From the sequence record NC_048132.1: 50,910 nucleotides of DNA; one strand, 5' to 3'. The first letter of the stretch is position 1. Each line of letters opens with the position of its first letter. Shown here piece by piece: positions 4,453-21,533 of this stretch. The notes under the pieces were generated by a model that saw only the letters and a program-made list of their open reading frames with translations, did no database searches and had not been told where the DNA came from. Source of the stretch: Escherichia phage vB_EcoS-95. A program made the position numbers and the translations under genes.

Positions 4453-5178
4453 ATGGCTAAAGATATTTTAGATAAAGACACTCATGACGCATTCGTTAGC
4501 TTTGAGCAGTTGGAGAGAGAAACATTTATAGGTAATGCTCTTGCAACTGGAGGCCATTACCAGGCAGTAAAGCCAAATCAATATTATAAGGTAAGCGGCA
4601 ACCGATACGCTGGAAGCACCACGCCGGACGTTGTGCGCGATATGTGGAGCACTCCTCAAGAGATCGTGGAGTGGATGGAATCAGAATTTGGTGAATACGA
4701 TCTCGACGCAGCAGCAAGCCAGGAAAACGCAGTTTGCGAGAAGTTCTATAGCAAGGAAACAAACTGCTTAAAGCGTTGGTGGGGTAGCAACAAGCACGTA
4801 TGGCTTAACCCGCCGTACAGCAACCCAACTCCATTTATCAAGAAAGCAATTGAGCAAATGGAGCACAACAACCAAATTGATGTTTTGTTGCCAGCCGACA
4901 ACTCTACAGCATGGTTTTATGAAGCGCAGAAAAACGCGGCTGAAATCATCTGGATCACTGGCGAGGTTTACGAAGATGGTGGAGTAGAATACTCCCGCAC
5001 CGGAAGAATCGCCTTTGTGTCTGGATTGACTGGCGAGCCTGTGCAGGGCAACAACAAAGGAAGCGTGATTTTTGTCATGCGCAAACTTAAAGAAGGCGAG
5101 GAGCAGAAAACGCGATACGTTAAGATCAGCGATATTTGCCCTTCTGTAACAGAACGTCGCGCACGCAAACGGAGCTAA
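4453..5178 (+). CDS. dam: DNA N6-adenine methyltransferase (phage Dam family)
   Basis: NPPY catalytic motif (HVWLNPPYSNPTPF) characteristic of phage Dam-type methyltransferases; 241 aa. Confidence 0.7.
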   Translation: MAKDILDKDTHDAFVSFEQLERETFIGNALATGGHYQAVKPNQYYKVSGNRYAGSTTPDVVRDMWSTPQEIVEWMESEFGEYDLDAAASQENAVCEKFYSKETNCLKRWWGSNKHVWLNPPYSNPTPFIKKAIEQMEHNNQIDVLLPADNSTAWFYEAQKNAAEIIWITGEVYEDGGVEYSRTGRIAFVSGLTGEPVQGNNKGSVIFVMRKLKEGEEQKTRYVKISDICPSVTERRARKRS

Positions 5179-5182
5179 CACG

Positions 5183-5440
5183 ATGAAAAAAGAGAGAAGC
5201 GTTTATTTAAATGAAACTGGCGAATGGTTGTTATTTCGCGCTATGGTGTGCGATGCACTTGATAAAAACCCTAACGTGAAAAAGATGATTGATTGCGATC
5301 CGTGGGAATTTTCAAGCGCATTAGATATGAGCTTTGAGGAGACAAGAAAACTACCGCTTGAAAAATGGCACGAACAAATAAGAAATGACATGCAAGAGTT
5401 TGTCGATTCGTGGAATTTTCAGAACGGAATGATCCACTAA
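5183..5440 (+). CDS. Hypothetical protein
   Basis: 85-aa ORF with RBS; stop TAA directly followed by the box. Confidence 0.4.
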   Translation: MKKERSVYLNETGEWLLFRAMVCDALDKNPNVKKMIDCDPWEFSSALDMSFEETRKLPLEKWHEQIRNDMQEFVDSWNFQNGMIH

Positions 5441-5483
5441 TAGCATTTTTTGTTAAAACGCCCGGCATTTTGTCGGGCATAAT
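5441..5483 (+). promoter_or_regulatory. Box promoter (TAGCATTTTTTGTTAAAAC, hairpin GCCCGGCATTTTGTCGGGC, CATAAT 5478-5483, leader CATAGAAACGAA)
   Basis: Box + hairpin + -10-like hexamer at family spacing. Confidence 0.6.
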
Positions 5484-5509
5484 TATTTCATAGAAACGAA
5501 CGTGAGGAA

Positions 5510-5695
5510 ATGAAAATGGTAGTATATAGCAAGAAAGCATTTGACCAGGCGCAACAAACCGCACGCGAGGCGGTAAAAGGTGGAACGAAAAACAATATGC
5601 AGCTTGATTGGGGCGCTGCAATGATTCTACTTCGCGTTGCATATGGTCACTACCCATTAGAATTTGCGGAGGCATATTATAAGCATGAAGGTTGA
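5510..5695 (+). CDS. Hypothetical protein
   Basis: 61-aa ORF, RBS GAGGAAATG-proximal. Confidence 0.35.
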   Translation: MKMVVYSKKAFDQAQQTAREAVKGGTKNNMQLDWGAAMILLRVAYGHYPLEFAEAYYKHEG

Positions 5696-5927
5696 ACAAG
5701 GAAGAGATGCGGTATGGAATCACGCTAAAGAATGCGGAATAGCCGACGATATAAAGAAGATAGCGCAATACTTTGATATTGCAGATGTGAGCATAATTAG
5801 CGGTGATAAGATGACTTTCCTCAAGGAAAGGCCGCGAAAAATGGTAAGAGTTCCAGCAGTTCCAACAAAAATTGATTTCAAAGAGGCAATGGCTAAAATC
5901 CGAGAGCCTCGCAAATATTATAAATGA
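5685..5927 (+). CDS. Hypothetical protein
   Basis: ORF track 5664-5927 trimmed to internal ATG (MKVEQGRD). Confidence 0.3.
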   Translation: MKVEQGRDAVWNHAKECGIADDIKKIAQYFDIADVSIISGDKMTFLKERPRKMVRVPAVPTKIDFKEAMAKIREPRKYYK

Positions 5928-5931
5928 GGAT

Positions 5932-5992
5932 AGTTATCATGTGGCGCTTGTTTGTTCTACCGTTACCAGTTATCATCGCTGTTACAGTTATG
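5932..5992 (+). repeat. Direct repeats AGTTATCAT (x2) plus AGTTATG upstream of the HTH-phosphoesterase gene; candidate operator
   Basis: AGTTATCAT at about 5932 and 5968, AGTTATG at about 5986, in non-coding leader. Confidence 0.3.
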
Positions 5993-6021
5993 TACCATAT
6001 AGTAATGAGATAGGTAGCAGA

Positions 6022-7137
6022 ATGAAAAATGTAAAAATTACAGATGAGCAATTCAAGATCGAACGGGCGGCAGGTAAGACATATAAACAGATCGCTCAAG
6101 AGTACGGAATGAATGTGAGAAGCGTCGAACGTCGCGCGGCGCGCCTTGCAAAACAAGGACAGCTATCAACCATCGGAGCGCCTGGTTTTGGTGTTCATGG
6201 TGAGTCAGTAATGACTGACAAAGAAGGCAACATAATCCTCAAGTGGACCAAAACCAGCAAGGATAAAGAGCAACTAGAAGCATTAATGCGCGCAGCAATG
6301 GAGGCGTTTAGCGAGGAAGTGCCGCGATTAGATTCAGTTCCATTGCAGGAGCGTGACTATAATGAAACGCTTTCATTGTATCCGATCTTTGACATGCACT
6401 TAGGCGCTATGGCCCATAAGCACGAATGCGGCGAAAATTGGGATACTGCGACGGCGGAGCGCGTTATGAATAACTTTATTGACTATGCTTTGATGTGCGC
6501 ACCGGACAGCGAAAAGGCTGTTATCCTGATTGGTGGCGACATGCTTCATAGCGATGGCCTTGAGGCTGTGACACCTGCAAGCGGTCACGTACTTGATCAA
6601 GATAGCCGATATGCAAAATTGGTTTACGTTGCAATCCGTGCAATGCGTCGCGCAATTAACAAAATGCTGTTAAAGCATAAGCATGTTGAGGTCCAGATCG
6701 TAGAGGGCAATCACGACCAATCAGGAATGATTTGGCTACGCGCAGCAATGGCGGCAGCATATGAGAACGAGCCGCGCGTTTACGTTGATGTTTCTCCTCG
6801 CGTTGTTCACCACACGCAATACGGAAAAACTTTCCTTGCGTACCATCACGGGCACACAGTGCGCAAACCTGAGACTTTGCTAATGATGTGCGCGTCAGAT
6901 TGGCGGGAGGACTTCGGAAACTCAAAAACGATGTATGCGCACGTAGGGCACTGGCATCACCAGACCGTGACGGAAACGTCGCTTGGCATCGTTGAGGTGC
7001 ATAGCACCCTGGCGGCAAAAGACGCATACGCCGCGCGCGGTGGATGGAGATCTCGACGCCGTGCAGCGGTTATCATTTACGACAAAGAGCATGGAGAAGT
7101 TGGGCGATTTGTTCACTATCCAGAAATGATGAATTGA
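6022..7137 (+). CDS. HTH domain fused to calcineurin-like metallophosphoesterase
   Basis: N-terminal HTH (KTYKQIAQEYGMNVRSVERRAARLAKQG); DMH, GGDMLHSD, GNHD, HHGH, GHWHH metallophosphatase signature motifs; start at internal ATG (track start 5872 is TTG). Confidence 0.5.
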   Translation: MKNVKITDEQFKIERAAGKTYKQIAQEYGMNVRSVERRAARLAKQGQLSTIGAPGFGVHGESVMTDKEGNIILKWTKTSKDKEQLEALMRAAMEAFSEEVPRLDSVPLQERDYNETLSLYPIFDMHLGAMAHKHECGENWDTATAERVMNNFIDYALMCAPDSEKAVILIGGDMLHSDGLEAVTPASGHVLDQDSRYAKLVYVAIRAMRRAINKMLLKHKHVEVQIVEGNHDQSGMIWLRAAMAAAYENEPRVYVDVSPRVVHHTQYGKTFLAYHHGHTVRKPETLLMMCASDWREDFGNSKTMYAHVGHWHHQTVTETSLGIVEVHSTLAAKDAYAARGGWRSRRRAAVIIYDKEHGEVGRFVHYPEMMN

Positions 7138-7185
7138 TGAATTTTTATTTAAATCAATGACAAATTAAATCAAAAACTTGCAAAG

Positions 7186-7216
7186 GGGCGGCGTTTGTCG
7201 CCTCTTTTTTTGTTTG
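7186..7216 (+). terminator. Weak rho-independent terminator after the phosphoesterase gene
   Basis: Short GC stem (GGCG..CGCC) followed by TCTTTTTTTGTTTGATTTTTT. Confidence 0.35.
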
Positions 7217-7244
7217 ATTTTTTACCATGTAAGTTTATCATTCG

Positions 7245-7258
7245 GTCAATATATTGAC
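7245..7258. promoter_or_regulatory. Perfect 14-bp palindrome GTCAATATATTGAC upstream of the lysis cassette; candidate operator
   Basis: Self-complementary sequence 24 bp upstream of holin ATG. Confidence 0.4.
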
Positions 7259-7281
7259 TTTAATTAATATGGAGAATAAGA

Positions 7282-7497
7282 ATGAAAGATTTTATTAACG
7301 CAGCTACCGCCGGATCTGGCGGTTCATCTATCGCAAGCGCCGCGACAGGGCAGTTAACCATTGCTATTGCCAGCTTTGTTTTAATGGCTGCATTCGGTGC
7401 ATGGGGCGCTTACCTTCGCTGGCGTGATAGTAAAAAATTCCACGAGGCGATCGAAAATGGTGATATTCAAAAAGCTATTGAAATCAGGGGCAAGTAA
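7282..7497 (+). CDS. Holin (single TMD, 71 aa)
   Basis: Small protein with one hydrophobic helix and charged C-terminus, immediately upstream of endolysin. Confidence 0.55.
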
Positions 7498-7988
7498 TGA
7501 GCATAAAGAACAAGGTAGCGGCTGCGGCATTTGGCGTTGCGGTTGCCTTGACTTCTCCACTTCTTGAAGAGATCGAAGGGGTAAGATACAAGCCATACAA
7601 AGATATTGCGGGAATATGGACGGTTTGCGCAGGAATCACCGGACCAGATGTTATCCTGGGGAAAACGTACACTAAAAAAGAGTGTGATGCTTTGTTGGCT
7701 AAACATATCCAGGTTGCTAAAAAAGAAGTTGACAAGCAGGTTAAGGTTGACATTCCTGATAGTATGCGTGCAGCAATGTACTCATTCACTTATAATGCAG
7801 GTGTGGGAGCTTTCAGAAATTCAACAATGCTGAAACTCATCAACCAGGGGAAATTAAAAGATGCTTGCGATCAGCTTTATCGTTGGACGTATTACCATAA
7901 CCCCAAAACAGGAAGGCGCGAGAAGTCTAAAGGCTTACTTAACAGGCGCAAGGTCGAATACAAATATTGCACAATGGATCTGAAATGA
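7497..7988 (+). CDS. Endolysin (phage lysozyme, GH24-like)
   Basis: [23 protein letters not shown] catalytic-region motif of phage lysozymes; 163 aa. Confidence 0.7.
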
Positions 7989-8380
7989 TGAAGAAATTTT
8001 TACTTACACCAATCGCAATGGCGGTGATCTTGTCTGGATGTTCAAGCGTTACGCCACTGACCGGATTAATCGGCAGTAAGCCGGAAATAACAGCACAGGC
8101 TGGCGCTGAGAACGTGAAGCAGACAGTTGGCATTACAGCAAAGCAGGACGAAAGCACAAAACAGAAAACCACAATAAAGGAATCTGCGGTTGACAAGGTG
8201 GACACGTCCAGCAAGAAGGATTTCACAACATCAACCATTCAGGCCAATACCATCAAGGCAGAAAAAATTCAGGTCGTGCAGGGTAATAACGGCAGATGGT
8301 ACGATCCAATAATCATATGCGTGGTTGTGTTCATTGTGCTGATTTTTCTTTACTGGAGGGAAAAGAAAAAGGAGGCTTAA
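7985..8380 (+). CDS. Unimolecular spanin (u-spanin, T1 gp11-like)
   Basis: N-terminal lipoprotein signal with lipobox LSGC plus C-terminal TMD ([16 protein letters not shown]); start ATGATG overlaps endolysin stop. Confidence 0.6.
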
Positions 8381-8400
8381 TGCCTCCTTTATTTTTATGC
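8361..8400. terminator. Bidirectional rho-independent terminator between the lysis cassette and the convergent minus-strand block
   Basis: Hairpin AGGAGGC-TTAAT-GCCTCCT flanked by A/T runs on both sides. Confidence 0.55.
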
Positions 8401-8619
8401 GTCGGGCCACATATGAGTTTCGTTTGTTGGCTTGTTCGATTCGTCGTACTGCCTTACTTCAATGCTGCAAGTGTCGCCGTACAGTTCTGCAATCTTGCGC
8501 TCATTTTCAACCGCCGATTGCTCACTCCATCCAAAATCCCTGTCGTAAATTGTCGGGATTTCAGCAGAAGATCCGTTGTCATGATTATATACGCGAACTA
8601 CTAAAAACTTTCTGGACAT
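8395..8619 (-). CDS. Hypothetical protein
   Basis: 74-aa ORF; preceded by box promoter and conserved leader. Confidence 0.4.
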   Translation of the reverse strand: MSRKFLVVRVYNHDNGSSAEIPTIYDRDFGWSEQSAVENERKIAELYGDTCSIEVRQYDESNKPTNETHMWPDA

Positions 8620-8655
8620 AATTTTACCTTTTGGTTGTTTCGTTTCGATGAAACA

Positions 8656-8698
8656 AATATACCCGACACTAGGCCGGGCGTTTTAACAAAAAATGCTA
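8656..8698 (-). promoter_or_regulatory. Box promoter (minus strand; -10-like TATATT; leader CATCGAAACGAA)
   Basis: Reverse complement of box at 8680-8698, hairpin GCCCGGCCTAGTGTCGGG, hexamer at family spacing. Confidence 0.55.
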
Positions 8699-8816
8699 TT
8701 CCATACGCTTTACCGTAACCAGTAATACACCATCACCATTGCATAAAACATGTTCAGTGGTGCTAAAAGCGCGCATATCTGAATAAAGTAGCGTAAGTAA
8801 AGCATGAATAAAATCC

Positions 8817-9212
8817 TCATGTGATATTGAATTTACGGCGCAGTGCTTCAAGATCTTGTCTATTAGCTTTTGCCTGGAACAATTCATCATCGCCCATCTC
8901 CCCTATTCTAGCCATATCCCTGATCCAGTCGTTGCGCATACCATCCAGGCTATACAATTCGAATCCGAAAGGCCGCTTTGACGATCCTTTGGACCAGTAT
9001 TTTCCGCAGACCCCATCTATATAGCCAGCCGTCATCATTCTTGCGCAAAATTCCTTAGATGCAAGGCTGGCGAACATTCGCGGCGTAAGTCCGGCGGCCC
9101 GTGCGAGCCGCTCGCATTCTCTATGCTGATAGATAAATTTGGCTATGTGCTGCCTGTTAAACCAGTCGTATGACTCACACCATTTATACAGATCAAGCAA
9201 AAACATAATCAT
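8817..9212 (-). CDS. Hypothetical protein
   Basis: 131-aa ORF overlapping helicase stop (coupled). Confidence 0.4.
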   Translation of the reverse strand: MIMFLLDLYKWCESYDWFNRQHIAKFIYQHRECERLARAAGLTPRMFASLASKEFCARMMTAGYIDGVCGKYWSKGSSKRPFGFELYSLDGMRNDWIRDMARIGEMGDDELFQAKANRQDLEALRRKFNIT

Positions 9213-10789
9213 CCCAGCAGTATTGGATTGACAAAAATAACACCATTAATAACACAAACATAATTTCTTTCTTCCAGCATTGGCAGCAAGTGCCCTTCTA
9301 TCCTCTTCATTACGCCAGCTTGACCAACGAAAGGTTTTACCTTTCTCGCTGATTCGTACAGGGCGCGAATATTCAGAATCCCTTTATTAGCCTTGCCGTG
9401 TCTAGTGATCAATTCAATCAATTTGCCCATTTCAGCATCATCACCAGCATAACCAGAAGCATTGGCGGCGCTAATGTATGTTTTGCTCAATTCCTGAAAC
9501 ATGATCAGCGCCTCTTGCATTGTTTCCACGTCGATCTCTTTCGACTTCTGCGGGTATCCGGCAGGATTAAACCAGTTGCGGATAACATGCAGGACGGAAG
9601 CAAGCCTGATCACCTGTTTATCCATTTTACCCAGCGCACCGCGTAACATTGTATGAGAATACTTTCCGCCGTCTGCAAGATGCGGTTCCATATCCTGGCG
9701 AGCAATGTTTAGCACTCGCATAGCTGAACGGCTTATTTTCAGCGATATATTTGATTCGCTCATGATGTTATGCACCAATTGATAATATTGGGCCTTCAAT
9801 TCAGAATCAACCGCCTCATAGGTAGAATCACCATTTTCATCAATGAATGAGCGACGGCCTAAGAATGATTCCTCGCGGACCAACAAAAAGCGCTCACTCA
9901 CACCGATACCGCGCGATCCAGCGTCCATGATTCCGCTTATCGTTTCATCCTGGGCTATAACGCTCATACATCCAAGCGCGCGAAAACTCATGTTATTGTC
10001 AGCATTAGCACGGGCAATTGATACGTGACCATTATCCCACGCCTTAAGCACTAGCTCACTGTTAGTCTTCCTTTCGCTATTTGCATAGGTCAAGCCTAAC
10101 AGGCTGTTAATACTTGTTGCTTCGTCAGATATTACGGCAAAGTTACCTTGCTTGTTGTTGATTTTCGCCAAGCCTTCTGGAGTGGTATCTGAAACAGGGA
10201 AAGTTATATCACACATCTTTTCCAGCTTCTCCTCCAGATCCTCTTTTTCCTGGTATAGAGATTCCATATCAGCGCCTGATCTTTCGCTTTTCATCTCCTT
10301 TGCAAGACCTGCCAACTTTGCCTGTATTTTCTTTCTTTCCTTGCGGCGTTGCTCGTTGATCTTCTCAACTTCCGCAATCATCGGAGCAATAGCCATACTG
10401 TTGATCGCAGATTTACCAGTTGACGGCGGCTGGCTTGTAACGACGTAAAGCGCAGTCGGCTGATCGGTTCCGTGATAGTCAACTGTAAAGCGTCCAAGCA
10501 TAGCGGCAGAAATGCAGCCGATAAAGTGCATGTAAGCCGATGATTCAGGGAATTGAACTGATCGCGCAATGCTGCGTGATAGCTTGCCGACAACATCAAT
10601 ATCATTACCAAGAGAAATTACGGGGTAGCGATCGTGACCGCTATTTACATCCTTCACGTCGCCCCAAAAGCTGGACGACTGGCGATAGCCGTTAGCCTGA
10701 ATTGATACGCGAACTGGCGAAAGGTTCTGGCTTTCAGCCATAGCGATTATTTGCTGTGGAGTTAATTTGTTCGTTTCTAATGAAAACAT
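9209..10789 (-). CDS. SF3-type helicase / replication ATPase (P4-alpha or D5-like)
   Basis: Walker A SQPPSTGKS (SF3 GPPxTGKS pattern), Walker B-like FAVISDE; 526 aa. Confidence 0.5.
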   Translation of the reverse strand: MFSLETNKLTPQQIIAMAESQNLSPVRVSIQANGYRQSSSFWGDVKDVNSGHDRYPVISLGNDIDVVGKLSRSIARSVQFPESSAYMHFIGCISAAMLGRFTVDYHGTDQPTALYVVTSQPPSTGKSAINSMAIAPMIAEVEKINEQRRKERKKIQAKLAGLAKEMKSERSGADMESLYQEKEDLEEKLEKMCDITFPVSDTTPEGLAKINNKQGNFAVISDEATSINSLLGLTYANSERKTNSELVLKAWDNGHVSIARANADNNMSFRALGCMSVIAQDETISGIMDAGSRGIGVSERFLLVREESFLGRRSFIDENGDSTYEAVDSELKAQYYQLVHNIMSESNISLKISRSAMRVLNIARQDMEPHLADGGKYSHTMLRGALGKMDKQVIRLASVLHVIRNWFNPAGYPQKSKEIDVETMQEALIMFQELSKTYISAANASGYAGDDAEMGKLIELITRHGKANKGILNIRALYESARKVKPFVGQAGVMKRIEGHLLPMLEERNYVCVINGVIFVNPILLG

Positions 10790-10817
10790 TCGTTAGCTTC
10801 TCCTTTGTGGGCCGTAA

Positions 10818-10860: not shown

Positions 10861-11079
10861 TTTGATCCGCTCTATTGCAACCAGAAGTCGATCAGGCTGG
10901 CGGTCGCTGTAGCATTCTCCTGTAATCCCATCCTTAAACGCAAAGTAAAGCGCCTTATGATATGAAAAACCAATCAGCCAACCTACCGCCGTTTTTTTGA
11001 TGGGCCTGACTATATCGCCAGGCTTGAAAGTCTTTGTGGTAGAATGCGTTACTTTGTAACGGTTTTCACTGTTTATCAC
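10858..11079 (-). CDS. Hypothetical protein
   Basis: 73-aa ORF. Confidence 0.35.
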   Translation of the reverse strand: MINSENRYKVTHSTTKTFKPGDIVRPIKKTAVGWLIGFSYHKALYFAFKDGITGECYSDRQPDRLLVAIERIK

Positions 11080-11462
11080 AGATATTTGCCCTCAAACAGA
11101 TAACAGCCGCCAGCAGAGAATCCGACCTCTTCACGGTACAGGTTCCAGCGGTCGCCGCACTCATCAAAAACATAACCAGCAACGCTTCCAAGCGGTCGCC
11201 CTTTCTCGATCTGGTATCGCTTTCCCTGCTTAAAGTGCTTTTTGCACGGCATGTTATGATCTACAAACGTGCAAAGAACGGTTTTTGTGTTAATGGCGCG
11301 GTAATCATCTCGGTTTGCTGGAAGCCAGCGGCTACCCTTAACAAGCGTCTTAACCTGGAACTCTTCCACCTCGATCACATCATCACTTCCTGCAATCTTC
11401 TGATAAACCGTTTTAAAACGGCCTTTCATCAATACGTTGGTTTCATTACAGATAACATTCAT
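11076..11462 (-). CDS. Hypothetical protein
   Basis: 128-aa ORF with RBS AAGGAG. Confidence 0.4.
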   Translation of the reverse strand: MNVICNETNVLMKGRFKTVYQKIAGSDDVIEVEEFQVKTLVKGSRWLPANRDDYRAINTKTVLCTFVDHNMPCKKHFKQGKRYQIEKGRPLGSVAGYVFDECGDRWNLYREEVGFSAGGCYLFEGKYL

Positions 11463-11491
11463 GATCAGATCTCCTTTGTTTGTTCGATGTG

Positions 11492-11534
11492 ATTATGCCA
11501 GGTTTTTACACCTGGCTTTTAACAAAAAGTGCTA
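11492..11534 (-). promoter_or_regulatory. Box promoter (minus; hairpin GCCAGGTGTAAAAACCTGGC; CATAAT; leader CACATCGAACAAAC)
   Basis: Box overlaps stop TAG of the methyltransferase-like gene. Confidence 0.55.
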
Positions 11535-12242
11535 TTTTGAGTTTGACTCAAAGACGGCGCGAGCAAATCCGCGCGGAGTGAGTGAGCGGATCATCTTTGT
11601 GCGCGATGACTTACCGCCAGTTTTGGCCCAGCCTGGATTATCTTTGTCTTCCTCTTTCGGCAGGATTAAAGCGCGCGGAGGAATAACAAAGCCGTTGCCA
11701 GTCCAGAGGCACGTTTTCTTAAAATAGCGATCCCGCGCCGGAATAATATCAGGGAAGTCGGGATGTTTATCATCTTCCGGCAGATAGCCAGCGTAATCGC
11801 ACGGATGGAACGTATAATCAGGCTTTCGCCATAACGTTGACAACTTGCCAACCGGATTTTCGATCATGTAAGGAACACCGAAATAATCAGCTATATCAGC
11901 CGCGATTCTGCAAGTGTCGGCGGCCTCATCCTGGAACGATGGATTCTCAAGGCGTTTTTTGGCCCAATGGCGAGATCCGCTATTTGCAAGGTCGGTGCAC
12001 GGCGGAAATGCCATAATAAAGTCAGGAATGCCCCATTCCTCCCAGCGCGCGCGGTGGTAAAATCTTTCATCAATCCAGACGTTAACGTATTCGATATTCT
12101 CATGCTGTATGCGCACTGACTGGTAATCACCGTGATCGCCACCGTCAGCATTAAAGCAAATGCACTTATAGCCATTATCAGCCCAATCTTTAACGGCTTT
12201 ACCAGATCCATCAAATAGTGAGAATATTAAACCTTTATACAT
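11532..12242 (-). CDS. Compact DNA C5-cytosine methyltransferase-like protein (atypical PCT catalytic motif)
   Basis: Motif I LFDGSG, motif IV FPPCTDLANSGS (PCT instead of PCQ), motif VI ENPVG, C-terminal RSLTPRGFARAVF (motif X-like); about 236 aa with no obvious target-recognition domain. Confidence 0.45.
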   Translation of the reverse strand: MYKGLIFSLFDGSGKAVKDWADNGYKCICFNADGGDHGDYQSVRIQHENIEYVNVWIDERFYHRARWEEWGIPDFIMAFPPCTDLANSGSRHWAKKRLENPSFQDEAADTCRIAADIADYFGVPYMIENPVGKLSTLWRKPDYTFHPCDYAGYLPEDDKHPDFPDIIPARDRYFKKTCLWTGNGFVIPPRALILPKEEDKDNPGWAKTGGKSSRTKMIRSLTPRGFARAVFESNSK

Positions 12243-12252
12243 CGTCATTACC

Positions 12253-12477
12253 TCAAAACGGAAAACAGCGCGCACAACCAGGATCGAAATCGCATCCACA
12301 ATCATTAACAATCATAGTGGGATCTGCAAATATTGCGCTTGATTCAAGATACATATCCATATCACCTAAAGCCTCATCAAGAGTCTTAATTTTATATGCC
12401 ACTTCAAGCGCCGCCTCTTTATTTAGTCCGGCATCTTCTGCCATTTGAAGGCGCTCAAAAAAACCGTCTTGACTCAT
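12253..12477 (-). CDS. Hypothetical Cys-rich protein
   Basis: 74-aa ORF, C-terminal CGCDFDPGCARC. Confidence 0.35.
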   Translation of the reverse strand: MSQDGFFERLQMAEDAGLNKEAALEVAYKIKTLDEALGDMDMYLESSAIFADPTMIVNDCGCDFDPGCARCFPF

Positions 12478-12590
12478 CGCATAATCCCCTTAATAACAGC
12501 CAAGATAATAGCCAGACCAGCAGCAGTAACCAAAAATCCAACCGCGCCAATAATCGAATAAAAAAAGAAATCAATAGCTTTATCTATCAT
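12474..12590 (-). CDS. Small hydrophobic membrane protein (38 aa), not in ORF track
   Basis: ATG preceded by GAGGTG; MIDKAIDFFFYSIIGAVGFLVTAAGLAIILAVIKGIMR; stop TGA overlaps the next ATG (ATGA). Confidence 0.35.
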   Translation of the reverse strand: MIDKAIDFFFYSIIGAVGFLVTAAGLAIILAVIKGIMR

Positions 12591-12632
12591 TTTTCACCTC
12601 GTTTAAAAGGCGGCAAAACGCCGCCAGATTAA

Positions 12633-12860
12633 TTAAAGAGCGCGCCAACTTTGAATATAGAAAGCGTTTTCTTCCAGTAATTCTTTTACCTGATCTTTAT
12701 TGTATTTGCGCACCTTGCCGCCTGGATGGATACCAATAAGATAGCCGCCTTTGCCCTCGGTGATAGTGATTTGGCTAATTCCGCAGGACTTATCAAGTTT
12801 TACAGCCACGCGGTGATGAGCGTCAATAGTTGCCATAATGTTTAAAACTTTTGCTTTCAT
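12633..12860 (-). CDS. Hypothetical protein
   Basis: 75-aa ORF followed by hairpin GGCGGCGTTTTGCCGCC. Confidence 0.4.
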   Translation of the reverse strand: MKAKVLNIMATIDAHHRVAVKLDKSCGISQITITEGKGGYLIGIHPGGKVRKYNKDQVKELLEENAFYIQSWRAL

Positions 12861-12968
12861 TTAAATATCCTCAATTGAAATATGAATGACGTGGCGCTCT
12901 TTTTCCGTCGCCGCCGTAATGGTCATTTGCAACCGCCACCATCCAGGCGTTTTTGAAAATAAATAGCC

Positions 12969-13181
12969 TCATTTCTTATTTTTCAGCTTAAATTTATGAC
13001 CTGGAACACCAGCGCCAATATAGCCATCGTTGTATTCCATCAAATAAAGGTGAAGACCATTATCTGAAATTACATGAGGATCTTCTTTGAGATTTCCCAT
13101 TAGTGGATATTCTTTTCCGCGCGTAAATCTCCAAGTTGAGTTATAAGTTTCTACGCATTTAAGTTTTAATTGCTTTGCCAT
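12969..13181 (-). CDS. Hypothetical protein
   Basis: 70-aa ORF. Confidence 0.35.
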   Translation of the reverse strand: MAKQLKLKCVETYNSTWRFTRGKEYPLMGNLKEDPHVISDNGLHLYLMEYNDGYIGAGVPGHKFKLKNKK

Positions 13182-14239: not shown

Positions 14240-14240
14240 T

Positions 14241-14729: not shown

Positions 14730-14730
14730 T

Positions 14731-15466: not shown

Positions 15467-15500
15467 TGCTATCTCCTGAGCGGTTCGTTTCGATGTGTGT

Positions 15501-15543
15501 AATGTACCCGATCAGACGGCCTGAGTTTTAACAAAAAGTGCTA
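15501..15543 (-). promoter_or_regulatory. Box promoter (minus; -10-like TACATT; leader CATCGAAACGAA)
   Basis: Exact reverse-complement box at 15525-15543. Confidence 0.55.
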
Positions 15544-15544
15544 T

Positions 15545-16099: not shown

Positions 16100-16127
16100 T
16101 TGACACGCACCAAATAGCTTTTATAAT
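16100..16127 (+). promoter_or_regulatory. Near-consensus sigma70 promoter (TTGACA-16 bp-TATAAT) for rightward early transcription
   Basis: TTGACA at 16100-16105 and TATAAT at 16122-16127. Confidence 0.6.
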
Positions 16128-16158
16128 GCGCAAACAGTCAACAACTGGAGGAAAGGAA

Positions 16159-16623
16159 ATGGAACAGAAAACCACTAAGGACTATTGCGATTGGCTTCGC
16201 GAGCTTGGTCGCCGCCTGGCTAGTGGCGATATTGAAGAGTATAAAATGTCACTAATTGACCTGGCCGGAATGTTAAGCGGTGATGACTGCTACAAGATCA
16301 CGCGCAGTTCATCCTACAGCCGGACCATTATCAACCGCGTTCCAGAAGTAAGGGCCGCAGGTCGGGTAAGCATCAAGGTAGAGGAAACGGAAGATGATAA
16401 ATTTTACGTTTTCCGCATGGTCCGCGAATCGAAAAGGAAAATCATCACACCCGAAGAATTGCCAGCCATCAAGGCAAGGGCGATCAAAAAGTTTGCCGAT
16501 CGCTTACTGGCAGCAATCCCGAACATCGTGGACATGGAAGGGGATAAACTGGCTGGAGCTTGTGAGGGCGTAAGCCGCTACCAGGATATGATCCGCGAAA
16601 TCATCAAAGAGGAGGAGCAATAA
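16159..16623 (+). CDS. Hypothetical early protein (first gene downstream of the consensus promoter)
   Basis: Start at MEQKTTKDY with RBS GGAGG; 154 aa. Confidence 0.5.
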   Translation: MEQKTTKDYCDWLRELGRRLASGDIEEYKMSLIDLAGMLSGDDCYKITRSSSYSRTIINRVPEVRAAGRVSIKVEETEDDKFYVFRMVRESKRKIITPEELPAIKARAIKKFADRLLAAIPNIVDMEGDKLAGACEGVSRYQDMIREIIKEEEQ

Positions 16624-16883
16624 TGAAAAAGGCATTAATCGGCGTTTTGGCGGCAATGACACTCCTGACCGGATGCGAAAAGGCATCAGAATCAACGGTT
16701 GTCGTAGGCGTTGAGTCAGATTTCAAAGTCGGCCGCCTGTTCACTGTTGACGGATGCACAGCATACAGATTCTATGATAACGGTCGCGCGATCTATTACA
16801 CCAGTTGCAAAGGCGCAACGGATAGCACATACAACAGCGGAAAGAACGTAATGCACCAGCAAGTCACAACAGATATTAAATAG
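16623..16883 (+). CDS. Putative lipoprotein
   Basis: Signal peptide with lipobox LLTGC; 86 aa. Confidence 0.5.
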   Translation: MKKALIGVLAAMTLLTGCEKASESTVVVGVESDFKVGRLFTVDGCTAYRFYDNGRAIYYTSCKGATDSTYNSGKNVMHQQVTTDIK

Positions 16884-16923
16884 CACTTTTTGTTAAAACG
16901 CCAGGCGCAAAGCCTGGCATAAT
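16881..16923 (+). promoter_or_regulatory. Box promoter (hairpin GCCAGGCGCAAAGCCTGGC; CATAAT; leader CATCGAAACGAG)
   Basis: Exact box overlapping stop TAG. Confidence 0.6.
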
Positions 16924-16955
16924 AGCCTCATCGAAACGAGATTGAGTAAACAAAA

Positions 16956-17141
16956 ATGGCACGTCGCATCACCAAAGACCTTAAAGTCCTGAACAAAGAA
17001 AACGTAGTTAAAATCCTGGTTATCTGGGGCTACAACGAAGAAACAGCAAAGCAGAAGGTAGAGGCGGGTTATGACCTGGCTGTAAAAGCAATGCCAAACG
17101 ACGACGCCAAAGGCATTGCAAACTATGTAGCTTTCTTTTAA
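16956..17141 (+). CDS. Hypothetical protein
   Basis: 61-aa ORF. Confidence 0.4.
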   Translation: MARRITKDLKVLNKENVVKILVIWGYNEETAKQKVEAGYDLAVKAMPNDDAKGIANYVAFF

Positions 17142-17156
17142 TTAGCAGGTGAATAA

Positions 17157-17342
17157 ATGAAAACGAAATTAGTCCATAAATCAGAAATCAAGATCGGCGA
17201 TACTGTGATTCACAACGGAGAGCTTAGAACGGTTGGCAAAGAGTCAATAAGCCACGATGAATTTATGGGGATCTTGTTGTTCGGCGACTCTTATCGTCTT
17301 GGTTACAAGATGGTTGAGCTTGTGGAAGAAGTGAAATTCTAA
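17157..17342 (+). CDS. Hypothetical protein
   Basis: 61-aa ORF. Confidence 0.4.
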   Translation: MKTKLVHKSEIKIGDTVIHNGELRTVGKESISHDEFMGILLFGDSYRLGYKMVELVEEVKF

Positions 17343-17343
17343 A

Positions 17344-17386
17344 TAGCACTTTTTGTTAAAACTCAAAAACGATAACCAGGCATAAT
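17344..17386 (+). promoter_or_regulatory. Box promoter (CATAAT at 17381-17386)
   Basis: Exact box one base after stop TAA. Confidence 0.6.
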
Positions 17387-17441
17387 AAATCACATAGGGC
17401 GGCACGGCGTCGCCCAGTTAAACCAATCAGGAGAAAGCACC

Positions 17442-18335
17442 ATGTTAAAACTTGCTGACATTAAATTCCCGATCACCTTCGAATCTCGCGGCATTGGTCA
17501 TTACATTTTTACCGATGAAAAAACATGCCATAAGGTTGATATGAATAGCGACAAACTAAGCCCATCAACAATGGAGATTGAACACTTTATTGATGCACAC
17601 AATACGCACTACAACGCCCTTAAAGACTATGGCTATGCAATGCCAGGCTACACATGTTTGCACTACAAGCCATATAAGGGCCAGGTGTTACCAGTTCGCT
17701 CACCGGAACGCGCAGAGATTCCGATGGTCAATATGAAAACCTGCGACTACAAAAAGCTGTGGTGCTTAAGTGTGGATAATATCAAGTATCCGATCACGTT
17801 CCACACGACTGGTAAGTCAACGATTCGCTACACATCGCGCGACAATGGCGTTTATAGCGATGGTACGAAATCAGAGTTGAAAGTTGATTTCTTTGTCAAC
17901 GGTCACAACAAATTCAATCCGCACAACGAAGAGGATAAAGTGTACTACGTGGAAGACATTACAAAACACTTGTTTGGAGAAACTCCATTCGGCGGCGGAA
18001 AGACGTCAATTCAAAAAATCATTGGCGAGGAGATCCACAAAGCGGTCGCCGAAATGAAAGCGCCTGGAGGCTGGCGTATTGATAAGAGCGCCTTTGCAAA
18101 TCAAGAAATCGTAACGCAGGGCGCGATTGAAGATATGCCAGTTGCAGCCACGCTAAAAGGAGTCAGGCTTGATGACGGCACCTGGTATGAATTAACGGCT
18201 ACACCAAAGACGATCGAAATTCATGATGATGTTGTTATTCTCCTACTCCACTACGGCGGCACTAAAAACCGGACTGTTGCGGGTGAGATCAGCATCAAGC
18301 GCGGAACGATGGTTAAGTGGAAGGTGAAGATTTGA
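17442..18335 (+). CDS. Hypothetical protein with internal tandem duplication
   Basis: DIKFPITFESRGIGHYIFTDEK repeated as NIKYPITFHTTGKSTIRYTSRD; 297 aa. Confidence 0.5.
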   Translation: MLKLADIKFPITFESRGIGHYIFTDEKTCHKVDMNSDKLSPSTMEIEHFIDAHNTHYNALKDYGYAMPGYTCLHYKPYKGQVLPVRSPERAEIPMVNMKTCDYKKLWCLSVDNIKYPITFHTTGKSTIRYTSRDNGVYSDGTKSELKVDFFVNGHNKFNPHNEEDKVYYVEDITKHLFGETPFGGGKTSIQKIIGEEIHKAVAEMKAPGGWRIDKSAFANQEIVTQGAIEDMPVAATLKGVRLDDGTWYELTATPKTIEIHDDVVILLLHYGGTKNRTVAGEISIKRGTMVKWKVKI

Positions 18336-18561
18336 GTTTGCTCACTGCGGCGCACGTCGCCGCATGGATCGGATTGTTTGCCTACCTGTTTAGCTTTTAT
18401 TGAGGTGAGAGATGACTACCTGGATTTTGCTGATTCTTATGATTGATGGCGGCGTTGACCATATCGAAATGAATAGCCAGCAATCTTGCATTGAGGCACG
18501 AGAGCAGATCAAGAACAACAACAGGTTTTATGTGTACACTCACACGCTATGTATTAAGAAA

Positions 18562-18603
18562 TAGCACTTTTTGTTAAAACTCAAATTTGGGGCCAGGTAT
18601 AAT
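18562..18603 (+). promoter_or_regulatory. Box promoter (hairpin GGGGCCAGG..GGCCC with TATAAT)
   Basis: Exact box overlapping stop of a small upstream ORF. Confidence 0.55.
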
Positions 18604-18633
18604 GGCCCTGCTTTCAACGAAGGAGATAAAACG

Positions 18634-18852
18634 ATGTACATTAAAAAGAAGATGAAATGCATTTCCGTTAACTATGCTTGCTCTGGCATGTTCAAGCCTG
18701 GCGAAATCTATACGGCGCAAAAACTGAAATCATCAACCGGATCTTTTTACGTGAGCAATAGTAAGGGGCATCGCATGTTCCTGAACGGCGGCGAAGGCAC
18801 TAAGGTTATGGCACACGCTATGGTAATGGCTGAATTTGAGGAGGTGAAATAA
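18634..18852 (+). CDS. Hypothetical protein, paralog of 18852-19097
   Basis: Start at MYIKKK (RBS AAGGAG); shared C-terminal motif FLNGGEGT...AEFEEV. Confidence 0.45.
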   Translation: MYIKKKMKCISVNYACSGMFKPGEIYTAQKLKSSTGSFYVSNSKGHRMFLNGGEGTKVMAHAMVMAEFEEVK

Positions 18853-19097
18853 TGATCATTGAAAACAACTTTCTTTGCGTTAAGAGCAATCGACCATTCT
18901 TCACGCCTGGCAAGGTGTACCAGGGCAAGAAGGACACAAGAGATGGTCACTCTTATCATGTTCACTGCAACAACGGATACAAGTTTTACCTTAACGGCGA
19001 GAATGGAACTGAGATCGTTGCGTTTGAAAACGTAGTTGCCGAGTTTGAGCAGGTTACAGACGCGGAATTTGAGGAAGTGAAAGATGAAAACAAATAA
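18852..19097 (+). CDS. Hypothetical protein, paralog of 18634-18852
   Basis: YLNGENGTEIVAFENVVAEFEQV; start overlaps upstream stop (ATGA). Confidence 0.45.
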   Translation: MIIENNFLCVKSNRPFFTPGKVYQGKKDTRDGHSYHVHCNNGYKFYLNGENGTEIVAFENVVAEFEQVTDAEFEEVKDENK

Positions 19098-19305
19098 GCG
19101 CGTCAAGTACAGGTTTACTGATAACCACGGCGACGCGATTGATGTATACAAGTTCGGCGATCGCGTGTTTATTGATGGCACGTTTGAAGGTGGGCGTAGG
19201 CCGGATTTTAGGTCGATACTTACCGTTGACCAAGTGCGCAAGCTGGCAGATAAGTTAAATGATCTGGCAGATGAAATAGAATACAAGCAAATACATTTTA
19301 ATTGA
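19084..19305 (+). CDS. Hypothetical protein
   Basis: 73-aa ORF. Confidence 0.35.
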   Translation: MKTNKRVKYRFTDNHGDAIDVYKFGDRVFIDGTFEGGRRPDFRSILTVDQVRKLADKLNDLADEIEYKQIHFN

Positions 19306-19316
19306 TAGGTTTGATA

Positions 19317-20027
19317 ATGAAAAAATACACTTTCGAACTGTGGGGCAAGAAGTACGAATTAATCACCAGCAAGCCGATTGTTATCGTTGACCTGGACGGC
19401 ACACTATCGGACGGATCGCATCGTTTGCACTTGCTGCCAACTGAAAACTTGCACCTTACGGAATCTTGGCGCGAGTTTAACAGGTCCGCCGCCGGAGATT
19501 CACCTATTAAAAGCACGATCGCGGTTATTAACGGTTTGTGGGTGTCTGGATTTGCCATCGTCATCTTGACCGGACGCAGCGACGAGGTTCGCTATGAAAC
19601 CTGCAAATGGTTGAATGAGAACGGCGTGAAGTTTGACGAAATCATCATGCGCCGCCAGGAGGACAACCGAAAGGATACGGTTATTAAAGAAGAAGCCTTG
19701 CGCGCTATTGGCCTGGACAACATTGTTTGCGCCTTTGACGATTCGCCGAACGTGGTTAAGCACTTCCGCAGCTTGGGGATCACAACCTATCAGGTCACGG
19801 AATACGACAAGCCACACGCTCACATACAATCTCACGGCGTGGAATCAATCAAGATAACGAAGCGCGCCCGATTCGTTGGCAGCAAAGATAGCCTTGTCAA
19901 TGCCAGCTTTACCAGAGGAATAGCATATGACGTTGTTTCTTATCATGACAAGAGTTTTATAGTTCATGATGATTCTGGATGCGCATGGTCATTCAATCAT
20001 AGTGACGGCGATTTTGTTAATGCGTAA
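19317..20027 (+). CDS. HAD-superfamily phosphatase (nucleotidase or polynucleotide 3'-phosphatase-like)
   Basis: HAD motif I VIVDLDGTLSDG; later FDDSP motif; start at MKKYTFELW. Confidence 0.5.
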   Translation: MKKYTFELWGKKYELITSKPIVIVDLDGTLSDGSHRLHLLPTENLHLTESWREFNRSAAGDSPIKSTIAVINGLWVSGFAIVILTGRSDEVRYETCKWLNENGVKFDEIIMRRQEDNRKDTVIKEEALRAIGLDNIVCAFDDSPNVVKHFRSLGITTYQVTEYDKPHAHIQSHGVESIKITKRARFVGSKDSLVNASFTRGIAYDVVSYHDKSFIVHDDSGCAWSFNHSDGDFVNA

Positions 20028-20070
20028 TAGCACTTTTTGTTAAAACATCTCAACGGGCTTGCGGTATAGT
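20028..20070 (+). promoter_or_regulatory. Box promoter (hairpin GGGCTTGCGGTATAGTAAGCCC; -10-like TATAGT; leader CATCAACAACAAACGAGGA)
   Basis: Exact box directly after stop TAA. Confidence 0.6.
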
Positions 20071-20101
20071 AAGCCCATCAACAACAAACGAGGATTAAAT
20101 C

Positions 20102-20365
20102 ATGGCTAACAAGATCGAATTTTTTAAAGCGGTAGACATTATTGATGGCGCGCCTAGCTTCTTTGCGATCCATTCTATTGACGGCAAGGATATTGGGTAC
20201 AACGTTATCCGTCGAGATGGAATATCAAAACTTAGTGACCTGGTAGGCCATATTGTGTCAATCGGGAAATGCGCATGGCCCGATTCGCCACGAGAGCCGC
20301 GCCGCCGCGACATGATTAATCCTGAATTGCTTTACACGCTGGTAGTAGAGGGAGAAAATAAATGA
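20102..20365 (+). CDS. Hypothetical protein
   Basis: 87-aa ORF. Confidence 0.4.
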   Translation: MANKIEFFKAVDIIDGAPSFFAIHSIDGKDIGYNVIRRDGISKLSDLVGHIVSIGKCAWPDSPREPRRRDMINPELLYTLVVEGENK

Positions 20366-20547
20366 TTTGGTTACTTGCTTTTTTGGTTGTTTTTCTTTAC
20401 ATTTCAGGCTTGTTTACGTTCCGCGCGTTGGTGAAATATTCTGACGCGACAGACAAAGACGATAAAATCGTTCTCGCTTTCTGGTTTGTTTGGGTGTGGT
20501 TAGCAATTTACGAGATCATCAGAGACAAACAGAAATTTGAGTGGTGA
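20362..20547 (+). CDS. Small membrane protein (two predicted TMDs)
   Basis: MIWLLAFLVVFLYISGLFTF ... LAFWFVWVWLAIY hydrophobic segments. Confidence 0.4.
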   Translation: MIWLLAFLVVFLYISGLFTFRALVKYSDATDKDDKIVLAFWFVWVWLAIYEIIRDKQKFEW

Positions 20548-20604
20548 TTCTTGCTATGGCGCATTCATGCAGTGCGCCATGTTGAGAAAACCTAAAGGGG
20601 GGAA

Positions 20605-20748
20605 ATGATGCGTAACTTTGAAAAAATCATTACCAAAAAGAAGCGTCGCGGGTACGATGAGCATGTGGAGTTTGTGAACAAGCAGCGCAAGAAGCGCCAT
20701 AGACGCGAAATGCTGCATAATATCAACTCACGCTATGGAGGAAACTAA
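20605..20748 (+). CDS. Small basic protein (47 aa), not in ORF track
   Basis: ATG preceded by GGGGGGAA; Lys/Arg-rich (KKKRRGY...KQRKKRHRRE). Confidence 0.3.
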   Translation: MMRNFEKIITKKKRRGYDEHVEFVNKQRKKRHRREMLHNINSRYGGN

Positions 20749-20940
20749 ATGCAATTGCCACCATTTAACGAAAAAAGCGAAGAGATTGCCAAAACTGCAT
20801 GTCACCTTCGAGAGCTTGCCGACATGATAGAGCGCGGTCAGGTTATGATTGTCAATATGACGATTAAAAGCGAGAATAGAAATTTCAAGGTTTTAAGCGA
20901 GACAACAGAAATTACTGTGTTGAAAGCAATGGGAGAATAA
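20749..20940 (+). CDS. Hypothetical protein
   Basis: 63-aa ORF with RBS GGAGG. Confidence 0.4.
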   Translation: MQLPPFNEKSEEIAKTACHLRELADMIERGQVMIVNMTIKSENRNFKVLSETTEITVLKAMGE

Positions 20941-20942
20941 TC

Positions 20943-21533
20943 ATGAAACGAGACATTATTATCCTTAATGGGCCGCCTGGCTGTGGAAAGGACACTATTG
21001 CAGCTTACCTAACGGGCCATCGTTACCCAGCGGTTAAGGCGTCATTCAAACAGCCGATGTTCGATATTGCGTTTTCCATGCTGGGCGTGTACCGATACGA
21101 TGAATTTATGGACCTGTACAACGACCGAGAACAAAAAGAAAAGCCTCAAGTTATTTTGGGCGGCAAGTCACCTCGACAATTCATGATCTGGATTAGCGAG
21201 GATGTAATGAAGCCAGTTTTTGGAGATCACTATTTCGGGCGTCGAATGGTTGAAGAGATTCACGAGATGTACCGAGATTTGGCGGTTGTGATCAGTGATG
21301 GCGGATTCCCCGAAGAAATCAAGCCGCTGGTTAAGGCAGGGCATGAAGTGCATATTTGCAGATTGCATCGCGACGGCTTCACGTTTGCTGGCGATTCGAG
21401 AGACTACATTGACCTGAGCGGTTATCACTATCGAATCCATCACTATGATTTCCACTTGCAGGACGGCAAGCCAGATCTGGCTGTAAACGAGATCGTCAAT
21501 ACGGTCAAATGGAAGCACACACAGATTAAATAG
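20943..21533 (+). CDS. P-loop kinase, deoxynucleoside monophosphate kinase-like
   Basis: N-terminal Walker A ILNGPPGCGKDT resembling phage dNMP kinases; 196 aa. Confidence 0.45.
   Translation: MKRDIIILNGPPGCGKDTIAAYLTGHRYPAVKASFKQPMFDIAFSMLGVYRYDEFMDLYNDREQKEKPQVILGGKSPRQFMIWISEDVMKPVFGDHYFGRRMVEEIHEMYRDLAVVISDGGFPEEIKPLVKAGHEVHICRLHRDGFTFAGDSRDYIDLSGYHYRIHHYDFHLQDGKPDLAVNEIVNTVKWKHTQIK

Follow-up and report, generated by a model that had tools for sequence, protein, structure and literature searches.

Dam, a minimal Dcm-like cytosine methyltransferase, a gp1-like kinase and a Pnk-type phosphatase: probable ordinary early genes of the T1-like coliphage vB_EcoS-95

Introduction

Four genes of Escherichia phage vB_EcoS-95 (sequence record NC_048132.1; its whole analysed stretch of 50,910 nucleotides is called the window here) encode a Dam, a Dcm-like C5-cytosine methyltransferase (hereafter the MTase), a T4 gp1-like deoxynucleoside monophosphate (dNMP) kinase and a phosphatase of the haloacid dehalogenase (HAD) type. 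The closest described relative of the MTase is the Dcm of K42, a phage 95.4% identical to KarlJaspers (Bas06), whose escapers from retron Ec86 had lost or silenced the 711-bp dcm gene in four cases out of four, with mutations found 9 bp upstream of the gene's start codon (10.1101/2023.08.16.553469). In the same study expression of Dcm was toxic only when retron Ec86 was present; liquid chromatography coupled with mass spectrometry (LC-MS) detected high 5-methylcytosine (5mC) on the multicopy single-stranded DNA (msDNA) with Dcm, and not with a C82A/E128A/K175A/K176A mutant; defence disappeared on mutation of either C in the CCTGG of the msDNA; and 34 of the 35 retron-sensitive phages encoded this Dcm (10.1101/2023.08.16.553469). 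A 2026 paper in Nature Structural & Molecular Biology restates that the Eco1 trigger is methylation of msDNA by a phage cytosine methyltransferase (PMC12916289).

Three further groups of enzymes serve for comparison. E. coli Dcm and M.EcoRII (PF00145) have in common with the MTase the C5-methyltransferase fold and the motifs I, IV and VI, to which the CCWGG target and the 5mC product can probably be added, whereas the window protein is about half their size, with PPCT and not PCQ, a KK pair and not QxRxR, a single C-terminal motif in place of separate motifs IX and X, and a minimal target-recognition domain (TRD). The catalytic domains of the eukaryotic CpG enzymes DNMT3A and DNMT3B are 15-18% identical to the phage protein, which lacks regulatory domains and a DNMT3L-type partner; the likeness is structural, with no evidence of shared specificity. 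SpCmoX of Synechococcus phage S-B43 (PDB 8yf3), of 372 amino acids (aa), has ENV and QARER motifs of canonical form, a motif IX and, as motif X, GR350MVPP, and accepts only carboxy-S-adenosylmethionine (Cx-SAM); it is encoded beside CmoA and CmoY, whereas the MTase has no such neighbours and its orthologue makes 5mC.

A sequence-only reading of the window had seen in the four genes a possible set for DNA modification or nucleotide metabolism. From the folds, motifs, conservation and synteny established here, together with the absence of modification-pathway genes among the open reading frames scanned, we propose that they are ordinary conserved early genes of a T1-like coliphage and not a base-hypermodification pathway, with a probability of about 0.85 that covers jointly the assignments of Dam, 5mC MTase, kinase and HAD phosphatase. 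The central enzyme is already known: relatives carry its annotation, and experiments on an orthologue, 91% identical, have identified that protein as a 5mC methyltransferase and trigger of Ec86/Eco1. The four genes, each found where the sequence-only reading had placed it, are:

4453-5178, plus strand: phage Dam, N6-adenine DNA methyltransferase of the GATC type, NPPY catalytic motif (PF05869, TIGR01712, PHROG 111)
11532-12242, minus strand: orphan C5-cytosine DNA methyltransferase, Dcm-like and 236 aa long, with motif I FDGSG, motif IV PPC82T, motif VI E128NPV, K175K176 block, C-terminal motif IRSLTPRGFARAVF
19317-20027, plus strand: stand-alone Pnk-type HAD phosphatase, about residues 1-180 with DxDGT at 25-29, followed by about 55 aa of C-terminal extension peculiar to the window (PF25109, PHROG 415)
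20943-21533, plus strand: T4 gp1-like dNMP kinase, P-loop GPPGCGKDT (PHROG 139, AlphaFold2 and Foldseek)

Results

The Dcm-like enzyme and its orthologues

The Dcm of KarlJaspers is identical to the MTase at 214 of 236 residues (91%) without gaps; both genes measure 711 bp and have the same synteny, the KarlJaspers gene lying downstream of a DUF3987 helicase. The 22 substitutions fall mostly in residues 23-72, and the two phages differ in genus, Hanrivervirus for KarlJaspers and Warwickvirus-like for the window phage. C82, E128, K175 and K176, the residues replaced in the inactive K42 mutant, bear the same numbers in the window protein and are invariant in an alignment of 23 family sequences reaching down to 54% identity. 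By its orthology to the K42 enzyme, and on the strength of the LC-MS result obtained with it, the product of the MTase would be 5mC; this product and the retron trigger are taken from the literature on the orthologue.

In the MTase LFDGSG occupies residues 8-14, PPCT 80-83, ENPVG 128-132 and IRSLTPRGFARAVF 218-231. Across the same 23 sequences D11, G12, S13, G14, P81, C82, E128, N129, P130, V131, K175, K176 and the stretch R219-S-L-T-P-R-G225 are invariant, and T83 is conserved in at least 90%; judged by this invariance, the motifs are real and under selection. HMMER sets FDGSG...PPCTDLANSG of the MTase opposite FDGIA...SPCNDLSNVN of DNMT3B, so that motif I aligns with FDGIA and the invariant P81-C82 of motif IV with the PC of PCN, the Q being replaced by T. 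The invariant E128-N129-P130-V131 represents motif VI, and E128 is among the four positions that were altered in the dead K42 enzyme. The earlier claim of 5mC-methyltransferase motifs in a short open reading frame (ORF) is thus sustained, since the motifs are present and conserved and the predicted fold agrees. Its remark on PCT holds as well, the triplet being conserved family-wide, although to call PCQ near-invariant was an overstatement, DNMT3B having PCN and CmoX PPCS.

The AlphaFold model built from the family alignment scored 85.3 for predicted local distance difference test (pLDDT) and 0.85 for predicted template modelling (pTM), and a Foldseek search of the Protein Data Bank (PDB) with it placed DNMT3A/3B first (1.2e-6). 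The modelled fold is that of a DNA C5-methyltransferase, closest to the DNMT3 type with its small TRD; an unrelated fold, which the structure prediction proposed by the sequence-only reading might have returned, is not supported. About 35 residues separate the K175/K176 block from the C-terminal motif, in accordance with the earlier observation that a clear TRD is missing. At the level of sequence the kinship is faint: with phmmer the best match of the MTase among solved structures was DNMT3B at E 0.05, and the family profile matched none of the solved structures. The single C-terminal motif lay opposite motif IX of M.HhaI in one hhalign run and opposite motif X of CmoX in another, both with low confidence.

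The MTase belongs to PHROG 757, 'DNA methyltransferase' (2e-84). More than 3,000 relatives were found in the protein collection, all of them about 225-260 aa long and without any Pfam domain among their precomputed ones, and the family extends over about 1,500 sequenced phage genomes.

The start codon of the gene can be placed at two positions. The ORF is extendable upstream to a TTG at 12311 (259 aa; extension 12243-12311), overlapping the preceding gene, and the annotation is long in FritzSarasin (774 bp) and 711 bp in KarlJaspers. Upstream of the ATG stands one further element:

12251-12254, minus strand: GAGG Shine-Dalgarno sequence, 8 nt upstream of the ATG at 12242, read from the sequence

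[quoted passage not shown]

Dam, GATC and the cytosine target site

The assignment of the first gene as a canonical phage Dam with NPPY was confirmed: its translation contains WLNPPY, it matches PF05869 at 9.8e-62, and its score of 181.4 bits against the NCBIfam equivalog TIGR01712 exceeds the cutoff of 97.05. With expectations from a maximal-order Markov model of the whole window (1-50910), GATC was found 298 times against 300 expected. Among the related genomes depletion of GATC follows the absence of a phage Dam, with 72 sites against 205 expected in Rtp and 5 against 143 in the Kagunavirus PDP21P8; counts are near expectation in the Dam-encoding window, FritzSarasin, KarlJaspers, KP36 and A143, and intermediate in T1 and TH27.

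CCWGG occurs 129 times in the window against 126 expected. A purge of CCSGG (CCCGG plus CCGGG) was considered as a clue to the target of the MTase, since it was first seen in the window (3 sites against 20 expected), FritzSarasin and KarlJaspers and not in T1, which has no Dcm-like gene. The association was rejected once KP36, TH27, the Kagunavirus, A143 and Rtp were added: TH27 shows the purge with no MTase gene detected in the 50,000 of its 52,344 bases that were loaded, and KP36 and Kagunavirus PDP21P8 possess the gene with CCSGG not purged. Over all these genomes, the E. coli Tempevirinae and Nouzillyvirus (window, FritzSarasin, KarlJaspers, TH27 and A143) have 2-3 CCSGG sites against 12-23 expected, and T1, Rtp, KP36 and Kagunavirus PDP21P8 show no depletion, a pattern independent of the Dcm-like gene. 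Restriction pressure specific for CCSGG or CCNGG is a possible cause.

Genome content and restriction sites

The larger non-structural ORFs of the window were compared with Pfam and PHROGs. Among them are a primase, a Cro-like regulator, two helicases, a VRR-NUC protein, a repair exonuclease, RecE and Erf-like proteins, and DUF7174, alongside several families of unknown function. Among the ORFs scanned there was no homologue of thymidylate synthase or hydroxymethylase, dCTPase, dUTPase, MazG, glycosyltransferase, CmoA, amidoligase or DNA polymerase.

Palindromes of 6 bp are strongly avoided in the window. Found and expected counts were 1 and 22.4 for TCCGGA, 0 and 18.6 for AAGCTT, 0 and 15.9 for GGCGCC, 2 and 14.4 for AGGCCT, and 0 and 13.5 for GATATC; further avoided palindromes were GCATGC (0 of 10.8 expected), GCCGGC (0 of 9.2), CTGCAG (0 of 10), GGATCC (1 of 11.9) and GAATTC (4 of 16.2). 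With the palindromes purged and GATC and CCWGG at expectation, the counts follow the pattern expected where type II restriction can act on the DNA at sites other than those of Dam and Dcm.

Biochemical data exist for a relative. In KP36, a T1-like phage of Klebsiella, EcoRI, EcoRV, NsiI and DpnI cut the DNA and EcoRII, which has 155 sites there, left it uncut (PMC3620542). Kesik-Szeloch et al. concluded that it carries Dam and Dcm methylation and, describing the genome as lacking a cytosine methyltransferase, credited the EcoRII resistance to the host (PMC3620542). By tblastn, KP36 does encode an MTase homologue (47552-48244, 47.5% identical), now annotated 'DNA methyltransferase'. Taken with the genome evidence, these data come close, for a relative, to showing only canonical bases plus methylation, the finding that was to speak against cytosine modification. 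In the BASEL collection most of the Drexlerviridae show high sensitivity to restriction-modification (RM) systems and FritzSarasin is unusually RM-resistant. An explanation of this resistance by site counts (EcoRI 4, EcoRV 0, EcoKI 0) was tried and led to no conclusion, KarlJaspers having equally few sites; this agrees with what the BASEL authors themselves say.

The four genes in related phages

Megablast of positions 11000-13000 and 1-25000 returned the Escherichia phages atuna, SECphi27, tonijn, tonnikala and FritzSarasin (Bas04) at 97-99% identity over 93-100% of the query, and the window is about 97% identical to tonijn and FritzSarasin. FritzSarasin is classified as Drexlerviridae, Tempevirinae, Warwickvirus, and the high identity to this phage and its kin marks the window as a near-complete genome of a T1-like coliphage, Warwickvirus-like within the Drexlerviridae. 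In the curated relatives FritzSarasin and KarlJaspers the four genes bear the labels 'Dam-like N6-adenine methyltransferase', 'Dcm-like C5 cytosine methyltransferase', '(putative) polynucleotide kinase' and 'putative P-loop NTPase protein'.

The genes are spread over 17 kb and both strands, and only those for the HAD phosphatase and the kinase behave like a pair. Phage T1 has this pair and Dam and lacks the Dcm-like gene; therefore, the pair does not depend on the MTase. Rtp has the HAD gene and no homologue of the kinase, Dam or Dcm.

About 20-39 records named 'Campylobacter phage' (host C. jejuni, UNVERIFIED; MG065649.1, which is A143, MG065666.1, MG065690.1 and others) are genomes of Drexlerviridae or of large E. 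coli-type myoviruses and carry these same genes at 45-83% protein identity. These records probably stem from coliphages that were mislabelled or co-isolated.

The kinase and the HAD phosphatase

The dNMP-kinase-like P-loop protein of the earlier description proved to be just that. It belongs to PHROG 139, 'dNMP kinase' (5.5e-51), residues G15, K16, D17 and T18 of its P-loop are invariant, and its AlphaFold2 model (pLDDT 91.4) matched T4 dNMP kinase (1DEK_A/B) first in Foldseek (E 9e-7, TM-score 0.71), ahead of adenylate kinases, with T4 Pnk (1ltq) not among the best 50 matches. T4 gp1 and the window protein thus have a common fold, a GKD-type P-loop and membership of PHROG 139, and differ in sequence (about 15% identity) and length (241 aa against 196 aa). 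T4 gp1 serves hm-dCMP, whereas the window phage lacks a hydroxymethylase, so that canonical dNMPs are the expected substrates. Homologues of the kinase occur in 1,461 phage records; in Chaseviridae one lies between DNA ligase and dUTPase, and in a 145-kb Klebsiella phage one is near thymidylate synthase. From this genomic context and the structural likeness we infer that the enzyme would phosphorylate dNMPs.

The HAD phosphatase was also recognised correctly and can now be assigned to the Pnk type. Its D25-L-D27-G-T29 motif is accompanied by matches to PF25109 HAD_PNKP (7.8e-21; 75.1 bits, cutoff 27.6) and PHROG 415 (1.3e-65) and, in the PDB, to Pnkp1 (4xrp, 1.6e-6; 5uj0) and T4 Pnk (1ltq, 7e-5). 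The HAD DxDGT domain is common to the phosphatase domain of T4 Pnk, Capnocytophaga Pnkp1 (PF25109) and the window protein, with significant sequence matches; unlike T4 Pnk, the window protein stands alone, its neighbouring kinase is gp1-like and it ends in an unrelated extension of about 55 aa. No fused Pnk-type 5'-kinase domain is found in it, only the phosphatase. The family comprises 3,082 phage records, mycobacteriophages and Pseudomonas phages among them.

The two genes are a conserved pair. In Webervirus (SlimeyKevin, KP36) they overlap and stand immediately behind the exonuclease gene, in the order exonuclease, HAD, kinase; in T1 a single HNH homing-endonuclease ORF separates them, and in the window three small ORFs. 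The exonuclease has its counterpart upstream in the window:

5872-7137, plus strand: DNA-repair-exonuclease-like protein (context; PHROG 704, 7e-148), true start probably downstream of the listed TTG

This protein shows a weak N-terminal match to sigma-70 region 4/helix-turn-helix (E about 2e-3), and Sigma70_r4_2 is also noted on the KP36 homologue. The C-terminal extension of the HAD protein (19845-20027) runs for about 55 codons beyond the stop of the FritzSarasin and KarlJaspers genes; in those two phages a small ORF of its own starts at that point, and the DNA diverges wholly after ...CACGGCGTGGA, a mosaic junction that makes the fusion in the window phage. No similarity was detected between the extension and the small paralogous ORFs nearby. 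These, at 18571-18852 and 18852-19097, are tandem paralogues (34% identical, E 1e-14), both ending in ...AEFE(E/Q)V.

Discussion

Since the families of the kinase and the HAD phosphatase are widespread across phage groups, neither protein is a marker of modified DNA, and the argument that had taken their presence together as a sign of such DNA falls. In the model that we propose, Dam would methylate the adenine of GATC. The MTase, a minimal DNMT3-like enzyme with Cys82 as the nucleophile and S-adenosylmethionine (SAM) as the donor, would form 5mC on phage (and other) DNA after replication, probably at CCWGG as Dcm does. It would in this way keep fast-replicating phage DNA methylated independently of host Dcm, a protection against EcoRII-type and CCNGG-type restriction, and the same activity would methylate the msDNA of retron Ec86/Eco1 and trigger the abortive-infection system. 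The gp1-type kinase would feed dNMPs towards dNTPs for replication, and the Pnk-type phosphatase paired with it would most likely act in nucleotide salvage or in the healing of nucleic-acid ends. T1 degrades and reuses host DNA, and we favour salvage, with dNMPs converted to dNDPs and the phosphatase trimming 3'-phosphorylated breakdown products.

Several points weigh against parts of this model. No Pfam or NCBIfam model matches the MTase above threshold, PF00145 included, and PF00145 is matched by 12 of the 23 family members only below threshold (best E 0.0014). QxRxR (motif VIII) is absent from the MTase, with the invariant K175-K176-T-C-x-W block at that place, and so is the canonical GN motif X. 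The 5mC evidence is that of a preprint on a 91%-identical orthologue with an assay for 5mC only. The CCWGG specificity and the anti-restriction role are our inferences, the former drawn from the name 'Dcm' with the site mutagenesis of msDNA as its sole experimental support; the host of the retron study (10.1101/2023.08.16.553469), MG1655, has its own Dcm, which makes the need for a phage enzyme puzzling, and genomes with and without the MTase gene showed on comparison no consistent CCWGG signal. As for the kinase, its family profile matched only P-loops among the solved structures, the likeness to gp1 being one of structure and not of sequence profile. Finally, the Stp-like peptide near the HAD gene of Rtp, described below, hints at RNA repair over salvage, a part that the HAD may play in some T1-like phages.

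With regard to cytosine, the alternatives differ in how far they depart from a Dcm. A true 5mC enzyme with a target other than CCWGG, perhaps a shorter or relaxed site, appears unlikely, even though the TRD equivalent of only about 35 aa is DNMT3-like, the Dcm of MG1655 apparently does not trigger the retron as the phage enzyme does, and the genomes carry no CCWGG-specific compositional signal: defence is lost when either C of the msDNA CCTGG is mutated, KP36 DNA is wholly resistant to EcoRII, and such phages plate on mcrA+ mcrBC+ K-12, which, from the specificities of the type IV enzymes McrBC and McrA, would argue against frequent RmC or CmCGG methylation. Our search of the literature found no nanopore or bisulfite methylome of a Drexlerviridae phage. 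A larger departure would be a CmoX-like DNA cytosine C5-carboxymethyltransferase, making 5-carboxymethylcytosine, wholly or as a side activity, from the Cx-SAM of the host's CmoA. The hallmarks of CmoX are an 'SPPC' motif IV and an Arg350 that replaces Asn304 of M.HhaI and contacts the carboxymethyl group; both were confirmed in the SpCmoX gene of S-B43 (48586-49704; SPPC at residues 95-98, R350 in GRMVPP), where CmoA, CmoY and CmoX are contiguous. Motif IV of CmoX is SPPCS, that of the window family FPPCT and the canonical one FPCQ, so that PPC and the following S or T are common and the leading Ser is not. The family also has no Asn-containing GN motif X and has invariant Arg219 and Arg224 in the C-terminal motif, the retron study measured 5mC only, and E. 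coli can supply Cx-SAM without a phage CmoA (PMC12783734). Set against this, the K42 orthologue raises 5mC in dependence on its catalytic residues, and wild-type CmoX takes only Cx-SAM; the scanned ORFs contain neither CmoA nor CmoY, and most CmoX contigs carry CmoA. The C-terminal motif, moreover, resembles GRSWSVPVIRHLF of DNMT3, the best structural match, which has PCN and is a genuine SAM methyltransferase. Profile comparison by hhalign, meant to show which residue takes the N304/R350 position, gave a probability of only 15-18% with CmoX, in the 18% alignment with S220 opposite R350 and R219 adjacent, and below 1% with M.HhaI (C81 and N304 of the M.HhaI sequence used being in their right positions), and is not decisive. 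We consider carboxymethylation very improbable. Least tenable of all is a pre-replicative hypermodification pathway of the T4 or SPO1 kind, in which the MTase-like enzyme, the dNMP kinase and the phosphatase would replace or decorate cytosine. The 5-hydroxymethylcytosine (hmC) pathway of T4 does include a dNMP kinase, the MTase is atypical in its lack of a Pfam match and its PCT instead of PCQ, and FritzSarasin resists RM systems; on the other hand, no homologue of thymidylate synthase or dCMP hydroxymethylase, dCTPase or dUTPase, glycosyltransferase or phage DNA polymerase was seen among the scanned ORFs, the kinase and HAD families are spread over many phage families, T1 has both without a Dcm-like gene, palindromes are strongly avoided, ordinary enzymes cut KP36 DNA, most Drexlerviridae are highly RM-sensitive and the MTase fold is of the DNA-acting C5 type. 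Cytosine modification beyond methylation, one of the two outcomes that the sequence-only reading had allowed, is not supported in view of the 5mC of the orthologue, the missing pathway genes, the purged palindromes and the cutting of KP36 DNA. Of the other, an orphan anti-restriction methyltransferase with altered chemistry, the orphan C5-methyltransferase stands and the altered chemistry lacks support, PCT being family-wide and the PCN of DNMT3 also without Q. Hypermodification or altered chemistry is not supported.

For the HAD phosphatase and the P-loop kinase, the alternative to salvage is a split polynucleotide kinase-phosphatase that would mend tRNA or DNA nicked by host defence nucleases. 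The phosphatase belongs to the Pnk family and is labelled 'polynucleotide kinase' in databases, the pair follows a DNA-repair exonuclease with overlapping genes in Webervirus and is adjacent in T1 apart from the HNH ORF, and in Rtp (1444-2524) a 30-aa ORF annotated as resembling Stp of T4, which activates the anticodon nuclease PrrC, is found at a distance of two genes from a Pnk-type HAD gene. This alternative is a serious one, less doubtful than those on cytosine; what weighs against it is the kinase: its best structural match is gp1 and T4 Pnk is outside the best 50, its GKDT P-loop is gp1-like, and its homologues elsewhere accompany dUTPase, ligase or thymidylate synthase without a HAD gene. 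Rtp, for its part, has the HAD gene without the kinase, and no RNA ligase was found among the scanned ORFs.

The four genes are thus of known kinds and annotated in close relatives, and there is no evidence of a single pathway linking them all. Of some practical interest is the MTase family: its more than 3,000 phage proteins escape both Pfam and NCBIfam, and at least one published analysis, that of the KP36 genome, missed it. In its motif IV the family resembles CmoX, a carboxymethyltransferase found only lately, and with a probability that we hold to be very small the Drexlerviridae Dcm-like family could accept Cx-SAM from the host and form 5-carboxymethylcytosine, or act on a different target. 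If so, the DNA of T1-like coliphages would carry a modification missed by assays for 5mC only.

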